From contig DASVHD010000036.1 of the NCBI GenBank assembly GCA_036382775.1, positions 18,657 through 82,656 of the forward strand: DNA of 64,000 bases. Reading direction: 5' to 3'. Source of the stretch: a bacterium (GTDB lineage Bacteria > Hydrothermota > Tepidihabitantia > SM23-42 > JAOAFX01). The notes beneath the pieces are model-generated. The model was given only the letters and a program-made list of their open reading frames with translations. It searched no databases and had not been told where the DNA came from. Both the position numbers and the translations under genes were made by a program. This document shows, piece by piece, positions 31,869 through 57,340 of the stretch (the stretch's first letter is position 1; each line of letters begins with the position of its first letter).

Positions 31869-31983
31869 TACCTCCCCCTTGATGGGGGAGGATAGAGGTG
31901 GGGTTGACTGTTGTATCTTATTCGTTACCCTTTTATGTATTTCACCCTCCCCTTTATCCCCTCCCGTCAAGGGAGGGGAAGTG
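31869..31983. repeat. Copy A of a G/C-homopolymer palindromic mini-element, with two terminal hairpins
   Basis: The left hairpin is CCTCCCCC-ttgat-GGGGGAGG at 31871-31891. The right hairpin is CCCCTCCC-gtcaa-GGGAGGGG at 31957-31978, flanked by CACCCTCCCC and GAAGTG. The copy is intergenic, between ispA and lpxB. Confidence 0.5.
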
Positions 31984-37702: not shown

Positions 37703-37800
37703 ATCCCCCCCACCCTACGCTCCTCCCACAGGGACACCAATTATCATGAAAGGTCCTTTTCCACGTCGCCCTCGAGGGGGGAGGAAAAAGGAGGGGGTGA
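37703..37800. repeat. Copy B of the G/C-homopolymer palindromic mini-element, a longer form with a roughly 48-nt core
   Basis: The left arm is ATCCCCCCCACCCTACGCTCCTCCC. The right arm is GGGGGGAGGAAAAAGGAGGGGGTGA, which is approximately the reverse complement of the left arm. The copy lies between pdxB and the tRNA-Gly promoter. Confidence 0.5.
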
Positions 37801-37848
37801 ATTTTTTGTTTATGATAGGTTGTTGTCTGTTACTGGATTTACCGCGCA

Positions 37849-37887: not shown

Positions 37888-37959
37888 GCGGGAGTAGCTC
37901 AGTGGTGGAGCATCACCTTGCCAAGGTGAGGGTCGCGGGTTCAAATCCCGTCTCCCGCT
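37888..37959 (+). tRNA. tRNA-Gly with anticodon GCC
   Basis: A hand-folded cloverleaf is consistent. The acceptor stem GCGGGAG pairs with CTCCCGC. The D-arm is GCTC/GAGC and the anticodon stem TCACC/GGTGA. The anticodon loop TTGCCAA carries anticodon GCC. The T-arm is GCGGG-TTCAAAT-CCCGT. The molecule is 72 nt and has no encoded CCA. Confidence 0.9.
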
Positions 37960-53288: not shown

Positions 53289-55826
53289 TTAGCCATAGAT
53301 CGGCATTTGTTCGCGCAGTGCCTCGTATAACTTTTTACCTTTCTTTTGCAGGGCTTCATCCGCTTTTTGCAGATCCTTGATCAGGTCGGCGAACGTGGCC
53401 TTATGACCCGCGGTTTTTCCGCCATTAGCCTGGATGACCTTTACCAGCGCAGCCTTCATCTCCTCGCGCATGAGCTGCCACAGGTCCTTACCCTGGACGT
53501 GCGCGATCAGCCGGCCCATCGCCAGCGACATGGACAATACCGCGTTCATACCCAGATTCCCTTTTCTCTGCATCACCTCGATGACCTCATCGCGCGACGC
53601 GTTCTGGGTTATTTTGCCGCGTTTTATCGCCGTTTCCTTTTCCAAGTTCAAAAGCAGCCGGTCCACGGTTGTGATCGCCGTGAAATCCGAGACCTTTTTG
53701 CCGATGAACTCTTTGGCAATGATATTCAGCACGTTGTTAACCGCGTTCTGACAGCCCTTGCCTTCATAGCGCTGCACTGACTTCCACAGCGCGTTAAGCT
53801 CAGTGTCGTTCTTCGCGCTGACTGCGGCTTCGTTCGTGCCTTTCTTGAATTTGAAGGTCTTGTCGGCCTGGGCCGTGAACAGATCGGGGTACTTGTCAAC
53901 GACCCCAGACCTTTCGATCGTGCTGTCGATCAGGTGGATCGCCTCGCCGGTGCCGGCAGACGTGCCCAGCGGCGTTGAACCGGTGAATTTAAAGATCTTG
54001 CGGTATTGCTCGCTGCCCGCGATGCCGGCGTATAGATCAACACCGACCGACGGGATACCCGCGTTCGTGGGTTCCTCGTACGCGATGACCTCGGTGATCA
54101 CCAGATCCTGGATTATGCCCGCAATCTTAGTGACATCGCTTTTAGTAAAACCGCCCTTGGCAACCCGTTCCATCTCTTTCATTGTCTTTGTGACTGAACC
54201 GTATTTATACAGCCTTTCCGTGTTCGCGCCACCACCCGCTTTCAGGCCCAGCGAATTGACCGCCAGCGCGATCTGTGCTTCCATGTCGTCGTTAGGTGAT
54301 TTGGAACGGTGCGAAACGACCAGATCAAGTCCCTTACCCAGTGCGACGAGCATGGCGATAAGGCACTCAGATAGGGTGCCGATCTGATTCGCCTTGATAA
54401 GCGCCGTGTTGATCAGCCCTTTAGATGCGCACTCCTCGATCGTGGAATCCTTGGTAGTCACCAGGTCATCGCCGATAATGAAGACCTTGTCGCCCAGTTC
54501 CTTCATGAGCAGACGCCAGCCCTCGTGATCGTCTTCTGCGAACGCGTCTTCGAGCGATACGATCGGTACCTCCTCGACCGCTTTTTTGAACAGCTCGACC
54601 AGCTGGTCACGGGACATCACGACCTTCTCCTCGCCCCGCCAGAAATAATACATTCCGACGCTGTCCGGCTGATTGAATTCTTCCCGGTAGGCGTTGCTCA
54701 ATTCGCTTAACGCCGGATCGAACGCGATCGCGATGTCGTCGCCGGGTTTGTAGCCGATATCCCTGATCGCCTGCACGGCCATGCGCCACATCCGCTGTTC
54801 AGGGACCTGATCCTGAGGTTCTTTGGCGACAAAAGGGGCGAGACCGCCCTCCAGGCCGATACCCATGACCCGGGCGCCTTCGGATTTTTCCATGATCTCC
54901 TTCAAACGCGTCTGCAACGCGACCGTGATCATCTGCGCTTCCTCGTAATTTTTAGCGCACAGCGGCACGAACATCATTTCCTGCATGCTGATATTGCTTT
55001 CCGGATATTCCTTTTCCGTATGCCTGCCGCCCATGCCGCAGTTGCGATACTGCCAGGGCGCCCTGAGCATATCGCCGTCTGGCAGCGGTACTTCCTGGAT
55101 CCTTTTGTTCATCATCATCTGTTTCACGCTCTTGACTTTGTTCATCCAGGTGTCCTTGCTGATCTCGACCGTTTCGGCTTTTTCCTTTGCCTTAGCTTCG
55201 CGTGCCCGGAATTCGCGGTACTTACCCGGATCAGCCAACAAAAAGTCCAGCAATCCTACCAGTCCGATACCCAGAGATAGACGTCCAAAGTATATCATGA
55301 TCTCGATGTTCTGGATCAAGCCAATGATCAAAAGAACCGCGGCGATCGGCAGCATGACCAAAGACATGTTCCCGCTGCTCGCAGGACCAGCCGCAGCGAC
55401 CGCGAGGTTGAATGGAGCGTCCGGATAATAGGTCAGACCTTCCCGTTTCACGCCCGCAAACGCGCCGTATGGAATAAGTAAGTACATTTTGATATACCAC
55501 AGCAGTTTAGTGAAAAAGTCGGCTTTGATCTTTTTTTGCGCTTCAGGCAGAAGGTTTTCCTTCAGGGCGTTCAAGCGCACGGCCTGCAGGTAGTGACCCA
55601 TTTCATGGATCGCGATGCCCGTGTGGAAACTTAAGAACCAGAATACCGCAGAAACGATCGTTTCCGTGCTCGTGAAAACAAAACCGAGCACGTCCCTGCC
55701 CGCGATCCCTTCCCTGATGCACAGGATCGATGAAATGAACGCAACATGGAATGAAACCAGGATGTGGTTCGCGATGACCCACCCAGAGTGTAAGTTTTGC
55801 TTTATCGTACTTATTAAGTTTTTCAT
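53289..55826 (-). CDS. Fusion protein with three parts. An N-terminal polytopic membrane domain carries an HEMGH zinc-protease-like motif. It is followed by an enolase TIM-barrel domain and then an enolase cap (N-terminal) domain, that is, an enolase that appears circularly permuted.
   Basis: Five transmembrane helices with 'HTGIAIHEMGHYL' come first. The barrel follows with 'GIGLEGGLAP', 'IAFDPA', 'PIVSLEDAFAEDDHEGW', 'IIGDDLV', 'LIKANQIGTLSE', 'VVSHRS' and 'GLKAGGGANTERLYKY'. The C-terminal region 'AGIPSVGVDL...PLGTSAGTGEAIHL...GKGCQNAVNNVL...LGMNAVLSMSLAMG' matches the enolase 'RGNPTVEV..SGASTG..GKGV.KAV..GANAILAVSLA' cap domain. AAGGAAGG precedes the ATG at 55826. Confidence 0.7.
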   Translation of the reverse strand: MKNLISTIKQNLHSGWVIANHILVSFHVAFISSILCIREGIAGRDVLGFVFTSTETIVSAVFWFLSFHTGIAIHEMGHYLQAVRLNALKENLLPEAQKKIKADFFTKLLWYIKMYLLIPYGAFAGVKREGLTYYPDAPFNLAVAAAGPASSGNMSLVMLPIAAVLLIIGLIQNIEIMIYFGRLSLGIGLVGLLDFLLADPGKYREFRAREAKAKEKAETVEISKDTWMNKVKSVKQMMMNKRIQEVPLPDGDMLRAPWQYRNCGMGGRHTEKEYPESNISMQEMMFVPLCAKNYEEAQMITVALQTRLKEIMEKSEGARVMGIGLEGGLAPFVAKEPQDQVPEQRMWRMAVQAIRDIGYKPGDDIAIAFDPALSELSNAYREEFNQPDSVGMYYFWRGEEKVVMSRDQLVELFKKAVEEVPIVSLEDAFAEDDHEGWRLLMKELGDKVFIIGDDLVTTKDSTIEECASKGLINTALIKANQIGTLSECLIAMLVALGKGLDLVVSHRSKSPNDDMEAQIALAVNSLGLKAGGGANTERLYKYGSVTKTMKEMERVAKGGFTKSDVTKIAGIIQDLVITEVIAYEEPTNAGIPSVGVDLYAGIAGSEQYRKIFKFTGSTPLGTSAGTGEAIHLIDSTIERSGVVDKYPDLFTAQADKTFKFKKGTNEAAVSAKNDTELNALWKSVQRYEGKGCQNAVNNVLNIIAKEFIGKKVSDFTAITTVDRLLLNLEKETAIKRGKITQNASRDEVIEVMQRKGNLGMNAVLSMSLAMGRLIAHVQGKDLWQLMREEMKAALVKVIQANGGKTAGHKATFADLIKDLQKADEALQKKGKKLYEALREQMPIYG

Positions 55827-55948
55827 AACAGTCCTTCCTTTCATTTTATTTCTTATATGCTCAAATCTTCAGTACATTAAATATGCGCCATTCAAAGGTT
55901 TAAACCTATATAATACCAACATGAATTATATCTGAAATTGCCGATTTG

Positions 55949-57340
55949 TCAACGATTTTTCGGGTAAAGGTAAAAAGAACCGAAGATTATTGTTGCTGAA
56001 TTTTTTGTGATCCTGGTTTTTAGATACTCCAATGCCTTTTTTACAGTTCCGGCAATAATGATGTTTTTCTGATACTTTTTTGCACTTTTGAAGATCTCAA
56101 CCGGTTCCATTGCCCGGGGATGGTCGGCTTTTACAAGCAGGACTTCTCGGGCTTTGGGGAAAATATGCTTGATCGCGTAATTTATATCCTTCTCCGTGCT
56201 GCAGCCGAAGATGAGAAAAAGACCGCGCTTTGGAGTAGGGTCTTTAGCCCCGTCTTTCATGAGCCTGAAGGCTCTACTCCAAAAAACCTCATTCAGATTT
56301 TGTTCCAGCGCCCGAAACGAATCTTCGTTATGAGCCACATCAAAAATCACCAGCGGCTTTTTCGAGATAACCTCAAAACGGCCCTGCAATTTAGTATTTG
56401 CGATCCCTGCTTTCACCGCCGGTATATTTATCTCTATGCCTTGATCCCTCAACCGGCTCACCACTGCCAGCGCGAGCGAGAGATTCTCGACCTGATGTCT
56501 ACCTGCCATAGGCAGGTGCGCGTCGAACTCACCCCGCCTGCCTTTGATATGGACATCCATGCCGGTCATATCCATGCGCAGGACCTTTATCCTGTGGAGG
56601 TCATTGGCAAAAATGACCGCATGTTTTCGCTTTCTGGCAACCTTTCTTAAAACCTTTTCAACAACAGATCGCTGGTGGATGGTGATGACTGTGGGTTCAA
56701 GTATCCGCCTTGTCACCCCCCACCCTTCCCTCCCCCGCAGGTGGGGAGGGATTAAGGGAGGGGGGATTTTTTTAATGATCCCCGCCTTCTCGCGTGCGAT
56801 CCGCTCCAATGTCTTGCCCAGCATGTTCATGTGATCATACCCGATCCTGGTAATTACCGGAATAACAGGACCGGTAACGACGTTCGTCGCGTCCAGACGT
56901 CCGCCAAGACCGACTTCCAGTACCGCGATATCGACCTTGTGCCGGGCGAAATGAATGAACGCCATGGTTGTGAGGACTTCAAAGAACGTCCGCGCGCCGA
57001 TCCTGGTCTTATGGTCGATCAATGGTTTTATGATCTTTATATATCGATCAAGCTCTTTATTGGAAATTTCCTTATTATTTATCCTGATCCGCTCGTTGAT
57101 CCTGCGCAGGTGCGGCGAGGTGTACAAACCGGTCTTGTAGCCATTGGCGATCAGACAGGAATTGACCATCGCCGCGGTCGATCCCTTGCCTTTTGTGCCG
57201 GCGATCAAGACAATATTCTTGAGTTTTTTCTGTGGTGAACCGAGTTTTCTTAAAAATTTTGTATATGCATCGAGGTCATAATGATAGCCGGGGACTTTTT
57301 CGTAGTTGATTAATGAACCGAGAAAAGAAACAACGTTCAT
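55949..57340 (-). CDS. folC: Bifunctional folylpolyglutamate synthase/dihydrofolate synthase carrying an in-frame 19-aa insertion
   Basis: The P-loop 'IAGTKGKGST' and the Mur-ligase-family layout are present. The insert 'IPPPLIPPHLRGREGWGVT' is encoded by repeat copy C. Confidence 0.8.
   Translation of the reverse strand: MNVVSFLGSLINYEKVPGYHYDLDAYTKFLRKLGSPQKKLKNIVLIAGTKGKGSTAAMVNSCLIANGYKTGLYTSPHLRRINERIRINNKEISNKELDRYIKIIKPLIDHKTRIGARTFFEVLTTMAFIHFARHKVDIAVLEVGLGGRLDATNVVTGPVIPVITRIGYDHMNMLGKTLERIAREKAGIIKKIPPPLIPPHLRGREGWGVTRRILEPTVITIHQRSVVEKVLRKVARKRKHAVIFANDLHRIKVLRMDMTGMDVHIKGRRGEFDAHLPMAGRHQVENLSLALAVVSRLRDQGIEINIPAVKAGIANTKLQGRFEVISKKPLVIFDVAHNEDSFRALEQNLNEVFWSRAFRLMKDGAKDPTPKRGLFLIFGCSTEKDINYAIKHIFPKAREVLLVKADHPRAMEPVEIFKSAKKYQKNIIIAGTVKKALEYLKTRITKNSATIIFGSFYLYPKNR
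56713..56767. repeat. Copy C of the G/C-homopolymer palindromic mini-element, the short form, lying inside the folC coding sequence
   Basis: The sequence is TCACCCCCCACCCTTCCCTCCCC-cgcaggt-GGGGAGGGATTAAGGGAGGGGGGAT. It is an imperfect palindrome whose left arm matches copy B's left arm. Confidence 0.5.

Follow-up and report, generated by a model that had tools for sequence, protein, structure and literature searches.

How does a palindrome built of G and C homopolymer tracts come to stand in frame inside a housekeeping gene, and what kind of element is it? The question is raised by a stretch of 64,000 nucleotides from contig DASVHD010000036.1 (GenBank assembly GCA_036382775.1, positions 18,657 to 82,656 of the forward strand; here, the window), in which folC, the gene encoding folylpolyglutamate/dihydrofolate synthase (window positions 55949 to 57340, minus strand), contains such a palindrome. 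We consider this palindrome, copy C in what follows, to be a unit of a dispersed family of G/C palindromes that resembles repetitive extragenic palindromic (REP) sequences, has the layout of the TM/PIT motifs, and inserted in folC, where it has been tolerated; we put the probability of this explanation at roughly 0.8.

The palindromic core is 50 nt long (56716 to 56765), reads CCCCCCACCCTTCCCTCCCCCGCAGGTGGGGAGGGATTAAGGGAGGGGGG and occurs once in the window. It forms a nested hairpin in which, on either strand, four C-tracts precede four G-tracts, laid out as CCCCCCACCCTTCCCTCCCCC-GCAGGT-GGGGAGGGATTAAGGGAGGGGGG, and is directly followed by a run of seven thymines (56767 to 56773, plus strand), which on the coding strand becomes the A7 run of codons K190 and K191. 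As DNA, the hairpin folds at -21.2 kcal/mol (z score, -2.6), and a 108-nt stretch of the sense mRNA folds at -46.4 kcal/mol. The initial annotation had placed a palindrome in frame inside folC, translated as IPPPLIPPHLRGREGWGV and situated between the KAGIIK block and the next FolC segment, and this was confirmed: within a 463-amino-acid open reading frame (ORF), the coding strand reads ...EKAGIIKK-IPPPLIPPHLRGREGWGV-TRRILEPTVITIHQ, i.e., EKAGIIKK-IPPPLIPPHLRGREGWGV-TRRILEP-TVITIHQ. The interval originally assigned to the element, 56713 to 56767, had to be revised, since it spans 55 nt, which is not, as had been claimed, a multiple of 3. Comparison of DNA and protein with an orthologue in which the site is empty (P0004, at locus L001) showed that the whole insert comprises codons K191 to P216 (KIPPPLIPPHLRGREGWGVTRRILEP; 56693 to 56770, minus strand). 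These 26 codons replace a single Gly codon of P0004, of which the site reads ...ATAATAAAA|GGAACGGTC... (also given as ...ATAATAAAA|GGAACGGTCATT...; protein, KAGIIK-G-TVITIHQ), for a net gain of 75 nt or 25 amino acids, in agreement with the lengths of the two proteins (463 versus 438 amino acids). An insertion after KAGIIK, as predicted, is therefore present, but the predicted size of 19 amino acids was too small. The frame in which the insert is read, frame 0, is its sole stop-free sense frame.

Comparison with the empty site also delimits a tail that lies outside the hairpin (GTGACAAGGCGGATACTTGAACCC; 56693 to 56715, minus strand; peptide, (V)TRRILEP). This tail weakly resembles, by eye, the right flank (TGACAGATTTGGGCGAGATCC) of an unrelated insert found at the same site in another relative, P0002 (see below), and is possibly the remnant of an older insert. 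On the other side of the hairpin, part of the A7 run must have arrived with the insert, because the empty-site allele has only A4. We observed that this run lies 3 nt upstream of a stable mRNA hairpin (56765 to 56776; coding strand, ATT AAA AAA ATC) and thus superficially looks like a slippery site with its stimulator; its phasing and spacing look poor, and a -1 frameshift at the run would meet a TAA codon after six codons. The junctions, compared with the empty site, showed no target-site duplication, nor did we find in the insert any terminal inverted repeats beyond the palindrome itself. For these reasons, and given a size of 50 to 78 nt, we rejected a classification of the element as a MITE (miniature inverted-repeat transposable element), so that only the second half of the originally proposed label, MITE/REP-like, can be retained.

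The gene around the insert looks like a normal folC, as had been stated from the outset. It is intact and is the sole long ORF at this position; its product contains the Pfam domains Mur_ligase_M and Mur_ligase_C, has the FolC of Thermotoga maritima (1o5z) as its top match among solved structures (E value, 2.6e-54), and retains all conserved FolC columns in an alignment of 30 FolC homologues. A protein with 100% identity, annotated as folylpolyglutamate synthase, is present in public metagenome-assembled genomes (MAGs) in NCBI, JGI, and ENA, and the closest named relatives are annotated as "candidate division WOR-3." The dN/dS ratio between the window gene and its three closest relatives is 0.13 to 0.17, and folC is under purifying selection. 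An AlphaFold model built on the alignment (mean predicted local distance difference test score [pLDDT], 80; predicted template-modeling score, 0.82) superposes on crystal structure 1o5z with a TM score of 0.85, and, the last three residues aside, pLDDT drops below 50 only at residues 196 to 212 and 360 to 369. The former region belongs to the insert, which is modeled as a loop leading from helix 178-188 (with EKAGI at its end) to strand 217-220 (TVIT); the suggestion that the insertion is tolerated as a loop is thus supported by the prediction. In the folylpolyglutamate synthase of Lactobacillus casei, the lysine of the equivalent KAGIIK-type motif is what we take to be the carbamylated active-site lysine, which would place the insert loop near the active site in sequence; evidently, the loop is tolerant despite this proximity. 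Finally, no differences in folC DNA were observed among four assemblies from different samples (ENA ERZ27256988, JGI 3300027740, JGI 3300030613, and Logan SRR10376092), with contigs of up to 131 kb (the ENA contig).

Copy C is accompanied in the window by similar units. Between divergent genes lie two units that face each other head to head as an inverted pair and are separated by an AT-rich spacer, namely copy A (31871 to 31908, plus strand), which reads CCTCCCCC, TTGAT, GGGGGAGG, ATAGA, GGTGGGGT, and then TTGAC, and the oppositely oriented copy B (31942 to 31979, minus strand). A probable degenerate pair, copy D (CCCCCCCACCC...GGGGGGAGGAAAAAGGAGGGGGTGAATTTTTT; 37705 to 37807, plus strand), is likewise intergenic, located between the end of a plus-strand ORF and a tRNA gene, and its membership in the family is tentative, as it failed the strict scan described below. 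The tRNA gene (37888 to 37959, plus strand; 71 bits), about 80 nt downstream of copy D, is the sole Rfam match in the window. As in copy C, a T-run follows the G-rich end in copy D, and the same was seen in the low-GC metagenome copies discussed below.

A plain regular expression for C-run/G-run hairpins returned three matches versus 1.85 expected, which is not significant, and was replaced by a block pattern and a triad scan. The block pattern, CCCCACC-N3-8-CCTCCCCC-N4-8-GGGGAGG, matches copies A and C, with 0 matches expected. The triad scan, which is free of this pattern, looks for a pyrimidine stem, a purine stem, and a mirror third block that together yield at least eight canonical purine-motif triads (G·G:C, A·A:T, or T·A:T) with at most one mismatch; in the window, it returned only copies A (7/8 triads), B (9/9, minus strand), and C, the last on both strands, amounting to four matches versus none in 200 shuffles. 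The likeness of the three copies that had been noted by inspection is thereby corroborated. On the plus strand, copy C (56727 to 56763) consists of TCCCTCCCC (56727 to 56735), loop CGCAGGT, GGGGAGGGA (56743 to 56751), loop TTA, and AGGGAGGGG (56755 to 56763), with 9/9 triads; on the minus strand, i.e., in the sense of the folC mRNA (56718 to 56750), it consists of CCCTCCCC, loop ACCTGCG, GGGGAGGG, loop AA, and third block GGGTGGGG, with 8/8 triads. On both strands, the third block mirrors the purine block. The hairpin core was found three times in the 64-kb window versus once, which is what chance would give, in 1.24 Mb of sequence drawn from 80 unrelated genomes, a background made up mostly of the non-WOR-3 FolC loci returned by a FolC-alignment search of genome contigs. 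A whole-window repeat finder missed the A/B/C family because its copies differ by indels. No Rfam family matched the element, the searches yielding only sub-threshold hairpin look-alikes (Pab91 and miRNA precursors) that we treated as chance, and a MAFFT alignment of 16 full-form copies came out of register due to their low complexity.

The layout of copy C is that of TM_ECO, a motif for which Holder et al. (2015; PMC4666352) reported the consensus CCCTCNCCC-N3-6-GGGNGAGGG-N3-GGGNGAGGG and 3,610 copies in 262 proteobacterial genomes, Proteobacteria being the only group from which it was reported. The motif, previously named "PIT" element (work by Hoyne and Maher, as cited in PMC4666352), forms a triplex in vitro, formation in vivo not having been shown; its second loop is often TTA, palindromic versions exist, and no link to transposons and no promoter or terminator activity were found (PMC4666352). 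Copy C shares with it the 9-nt pyrimidine stem CCCTCNCCC, a first loop, a complementary purine stem, a short second loop (often TTA), and a second G-rich block, and the two families have in common their dispersed and, for the present family, probably multicopy nature, palindromic versions occupying both strands, loci that are hypervariable among close relatives, and the lack of a linked transposase. However, copy C does not match the exact consensus: it has CCCTCCCCC, an asymmetric purine block (GGGGAGGG), and a mirror third block (GGGAGGGG or GGGTGGGG) instead of GGGNGAGGG, and its loops are 7 nt (loop 1) and 2 to 3 nt (loop 2). Moreover, it is found in WOR-3 and is translated as part of a housekeeping gene, whereas the TM_ECO copies of Escherichia coli K-12 are always intergenic (PMC4666352), as are copies A and B. 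Judged by layout, copy C can be classed as a variant member of the G/C-rich intrastrand triplex motif family. When single stranded, it may form a hairpin, a G-quadruplex, or a triplex; the folds computed here are of the duplex type.

Other known systems resemble the element in single respects. Rickettsia palindromic elements (RPEs; Ogata et al. 2000, 2002, as described in PMC10969869 and PMC3184786) are palindromes that lie in frame in unrelated housekeeping genes, with the protein remaining functional and the peptide predicted to lie in a tolerant region, and that have intergenic copies, too. Copy C shares the in-frame palindromic repeat, the functional gene, and the tolerant region, but RPEs measure about 105 to 150 bp (sizes as given in PMC3184786), are AT rich, and are specific to Rickettsia, while copy C measures 50 nt (78 nt with its tail), consists of G/C homopolymer tracts, and belongs to a family found in contigs of widely differing GC content. 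The two show no sequence relationship, a comparison made without direct alignment to RPEs. The similarity to REP, BIME, and REPIN sequences, which are associated with RAYT (Y1) transposases according to the accounts in PMC3733652 and PMC6006769, lies in the imperfect palindromes of 20 to 45 nt, in which a conserved head adjoins the hairpin, in their occurrence as single units or inverted pairs, in their mostly intergenic location, and in the lack of target duplications. Instead of the GTAG or CGTC tag that defines REPs (PMC3733652), our family has a (T)CAC-CCCC(A)CCC head. Bacterial MITEs (Correia, ERIC, BOX, Nezha, and QMITE1; PMC10969869 and PMC3184786) are also small and nonautonomous and may lie within genes, to which they add a peptide, but they usually measure 100 to 400 bp and are IS derived, with terminal inverted repeats and target-site duplications, none of which was seen in copy C. 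The TRIP1 repeats of E. coli, elements of 146 to 273 bp, are unrelated and were ruled out. Yeast mitochondrial DNA contains optional G+C-rich palindromic clusters, among them an in-frame cluster in var1. These clusters are G/C palindromes of about 30 to 60 bp that lie in an AT-richer context, show presence/absence polymorphism, and can be in frame, but they belong to fungal mitochondria, are unrelated in sequence, and lack the triplex-type symmetry of blocks.

The family extends well beyond the window. In public metagenomes, the block pattern returned at least 120 stretches, on contigs with a GC content of 42 to 71%, where by a rough estimate a few would be expected by chance. Several conserved positions of these copies are not forced by the pattern, among them a 5' (T)CAC, CCCTCCCCC, and GGGGGAGGG. 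The fourth block of copy C, ...TTA-GGGAGGGGG, recurs exactly in a subset of them, and the conserved A in their "CCCCACCC" head can be understood because it is the complement of the T·A:T third-strand position (the T in the third block). Inverted pairs with an AT-rich spacer, like copies A and B, were found among the matches listed at loci L192, L148, L129, L126, L200, L114, and L085. The exact TM_ECO consensus, searched as a regular expression, was present eight times in the fetched loci, including one WOR-3 relative (L212), and was not found in the window. In the syntenic loci of the close relatives (L001 to L004), the hairpin at the folC site of L002 is the only copy, and L209 and L211 each contain one, compared with three in the window (four when copy D is counted).

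In the metagenome loci, in-frame copies were found in genes whose identity was confirmed with Pfam: polyprenyl synthase (two copies), CarA (interdomain linker), DapF (two copies, in the region separating the two domains), an Lhr-like DEAD helicase, and PolA (linker); the loci are L096, L108, L111, L114, L199, and L128. Without exception, the copies fall either within a linker or between two domains. One more candidate host, judged by eye only, is a type IIG-like methylase. A search for more copies, including some inside other ORFs, had been suggested; in the window it gave the intergenic copies A and B, and the in-ORF relatives are those of the metagenome contigs.

The codon after KAGIIK has had other occupants. 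Had orthologous FolC proteins carried the same segment irrespective of the repeat, there would be no insertion to explain, but this is not what we found: in about 60 of the 120 best FolC matches, which represent more distant or basal WOR-3, a plain linker of 6 residues (e.g., RENGRL) connects KAGII to the next strand, and in P0004 (82% nucleotide identity) the site is empty. When the DNA of eight of the homologues was compared at the site, its contents were seen to differ among close relatives. P0003 (87% nucleotide identity) has a shorter triplex-type hairpin (ATCCCTCTTGATCCCCCTTTAATAAAGGGGGAAACAGGGGGAT), and P0002 (91%) has an unrelated element of about 100 nt (L004, 1290 to 1383) with inverted ends TGTCATTGCGAG...CTCGCAATGACA and the peptide SLRG..RRSNL...IAALSSVARND. 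The P0002-type motif was found in six other fetched loci, of which L017 (from a Chloroflexota MAG) and L099 carry inverted pairs, whereas L035, L087, L121, and L209 carry single copies, one of the six being a WOR-3 relative; since its family thus occurs at other loci, including one from a different phylum, this element must have been imported and not made in place. A peptide similar to it was also observed at the second folC site (see below) of P0014. More-distant relatives carry further triplex-type variants after KAGIIK (e.g., FSPSPLSSPLRGEETVRGG and IPLNPPFIKGERGG, and PPPFPPPQVGEDKGGG in Stahlbacteria-like proteins). The hairpins of P0003 and P0010 are identical at 39 of 44 nt (counted by hand), with seven consecutive codons having identical third positions, while overall only 39% of the third positions of the two folC genes are identical; this could reflect either constraint at the DNA level or independent arrival.

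Palindromes are also nested within one another. In several Stahlbacteria-like FolC proteins, a PPPFPPPQV...GGG hairpin is split after PPPQV by a further insert, and in L099, a triplex-type unit lies inside a GTCATTGCGAG element. Another short type of insert, PDTRYQIPDNQ (CCTGATACCAGATATCAGATACCAGATAAT), was observed in P0007 to P0009, P0012, P0015, P0017, and P0020, either on its own or stacked ahead of the hairpin, from which it follows that the site holds layered insertions. In summary, the codon after KAGIIK is an insertion hotspot with turnover, in line with the instability and hypervariability of triplex-motif loci between strains (PMC4666352) and with the tendency of REP-type hairpins to draw further insertions (PMC3184786).

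On the basis of these findings, we propose that, in the lineage of this WOR-3 bacterium, a unit of the family inserted together with some 20 extra nucleotides at the codon after EKAGIIK. Its survival there would have depended on a net length of 75 nt, a multiple of 3, on the use of the only sense frame without stops, and on the translation of its C- and G-tracts as a Pro/Gly-rich peptide within the flexible linker that leads from a helix to a strand. Transcription of folC should not be terminated by the hairpin, because the T7 run follows it only on the antisense strand, leaving the mRNA side without a U-run; a role as terminator was also rejected because a consensus scan does not call the element. 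The insert would then be tolerated selfish or neutral DNA rather than a functional segment of the protein, and the description of the element as "drafted" into coding sequence would be accurate for its translation only. Once resident, the hairpin would attract further palindromic insertions, deletions, and replacements, leaving different occupants in sister species.

Among the alternatives, the one that most deserves attention, although we consider it unlikely, dispenses with mobility altogether: a single old palindromic insert would have been remodeled in place by structure-induced slippage during replication, template switching, and the loss or duplication of short segments, so that the different sequences in sister species would be mutational descendants and not new arrivals. 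TM_ECO loci do behave in this manner among strains of E. coli, where the motif is deleted or mutated and palindromic copies are partly deleted (PMC4666352), and at the folC site the flanks (K...G-x-V) are unchanged in every relative that has an insert, a weak similarity can be seen by eye between the tails of P0001 and P0002, and neither a transposase nor a target duplication was found. Remodeling alone, however, is difficult to reconcile with the P0002 insert, which comes from the unrelated TGTCATTGCGAG family, with the hairpin arms of P0003 and P0010, which are about 89% identical while the synonymous sites of folC are saturated, and with the occurrence of very similar units across contigs that range from 42 to 71% in GC content. 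Part of the variation at the folC site may arise in place, and P0004 may have lost its insert secondarily. Less probable still in our view is a co-option of the insert, in which the A7 run with the hairpin, or an mRNA G-quadruplex formed by GGGGGAGGGAAGGGUGGGGGG, would pause ribosomes or cause frameshifting and thereby tune FolC, or in which the loop would have a role in the protein. That the A7 run lies directly upstream of the hairpin in the 108-nt mRNA stretch (-46 kcal/mol), that the sense strand has four G-tracts with loops of 1 to 2 nt, and that the insert is fixed in four samples would all fit this idea. Yet sister species have quite different sequences or none at this position while their folC genes are equally constrained, the loop is modeled with low confidence, the phasing of the slippery site (T AAA AAA) and the 3-nt spacer are poor for -1 frameshifting, and PIT motifs showed no promoter or terminator activity in published tests (PMC4666352). 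An artifact or a dead gene, the former being a chimera assembled across a low-complexity repeat and the latter a folC pseudogene still open by chance, would at first sight be suggested by the difficulty of sequencing and assembling G/C homopolymer palindromes and by the fact that all data come from metagenome assemblies. This is the explanation to which we give the least credence of all, since four independent assemblies with identical folC DNA exclude a misassembly, the dN/dS ratio and the intact ORF with its conserved columns speak against a pseudogene, and relatives have analogous inserts.

A number of observations do weigh against insertion by a mobile unit, which we continue to favor. REPs are mobilized by RAYT (Y1) transposases, and no comparable enzyme was found linked to the present family, nor was a target duplication. 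The nearest candidate, an IS200-like Y1_Tnp gene encoding 264 amino acids, lies 8 kb from folC (L205, 1402 to 2196, corresponding to approximately 65145 to 65939 in window coordinates, just past the window's end), where it is inserted, with an RHS-domain gene after it, between the PALP and Ddl genes. It is missing in L001, a syntenic relative; its score against the RAYT model is only 29 bits (cutoff, 80), and its flanks contain no G/C hairpins. A clear REP-associated tyrosine transposase (120 bits) does occur in a WOR-3 relative (L210, 13763 to 14700), but on either side of it stand arrays of GTAGGAGCGGTTTCTAACCGCGAC (period, 33 nt), a GTAG-type REP of its own and not the G/C hairpin; the called ORF continues into the array, giving it a tail of SRLETAPTGGE repeats. 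Among the matches listed, none of the 120 motif-bearing loci contained a Y1 or RAYT ORF. In the loci covered, mobilization by a RAYT is not supported. Holder et al., moreover, reported no evidence of mobility for TM_ECO, and the motifs of E. coli are intergenic only (PMC4666352). The sequence examined contained no second copy nearly identical to C, the closest, copy A, being about 75% identical by eye, so that recent transposition is not demonstrated; copies in the source genome were sought within the window (64 kb) plus another 3 kb. The hairpin does not explain some 20 nt of the insert (56693 to 56715, encoding TRRILEP), which lie outside it, and the empty site of P0004 could represent a secondary deletion rather than the ancestral state. 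Lastly, as the block pattern was derived from copies A and C, its match to these copies is a circular test, and the query itself imposes part of the family consensus.

The palindrome after KAGIIK is not the only insert in this folC. A second, unrelated palindromic in-frame insert (TTGGAGTAG...CTACTCCAA; 56230 to 56282, minus strand; peptide, FWSRAFRLMKDGAKDPTPK) occupies approximately residues 352 to 372, between the two FolC domains, and coincides with the other low-confidence segment of the model (pLDDT of <50 at residues 360 to 369). Its RNA folds at -31.6 kcal/mol, and in the alignment it is missing from the FolC of basal WOR-3. Peptides like that of this second insert (FPGSRAFRL...RKRPTPENRQP) were seen nested in the first-site hairpin of Stahlbacteria-like FolC proteins (P0049 to P0054, P0063, and P0075), so that the second insert looks like a member of another repeat family. 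Downstream of folC, we noted a gene (53289 to 55844, minus strand) of which the product combines an enolase domain with a long hydrophobic region at the N terminus, in which an HEMGH motif lies, an unusual architecture that is kept in relatives (845 to 851 amino acids).

We speculate, as a tentative and rather doubtful extension of the above, that triplex-type G/C palindromes constitute a single class of mini-elements that is actively spreading across phyla, with an enzyme or a replication-linked copying process that recognizes the hairpin or triplex form and prefers existing hairpins and A/T runs. If true, this would explain the repeated colonization of the FolC loop and of the linkers of CarA, DapF, PolA, and other proteins, and such elements would generally supply bacterial proteins with Pro/Gly-rich loops. 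As a further possibility, the sense-strand G-tracts could serve as a hairpin/quadruplex switch while the mRNA is translated. Independently of this speculation, in-frame "selfish" palindromes have so far been known mainly from Rickettsia, and the folC case adds the uncultured phylum WOR-3, the points of interest being the intragenic location and a hotspot with multiple occupants. It also carries a warning, in that Pro/Gly-rich or "SLRG...ARND" segments in MAG proteins can be translated repeats, which inflate alignments and domain boundaries. Finally, in species that are 82 to 91% identical in folC, one and the same codon position of the gene either is vacant or holds one of at least three different occupants, which amounts to a natural experiment that could be used to follow the arrival, replacement, and loss of such elements, as well as the tolerance of an enzyme for loop insertions.

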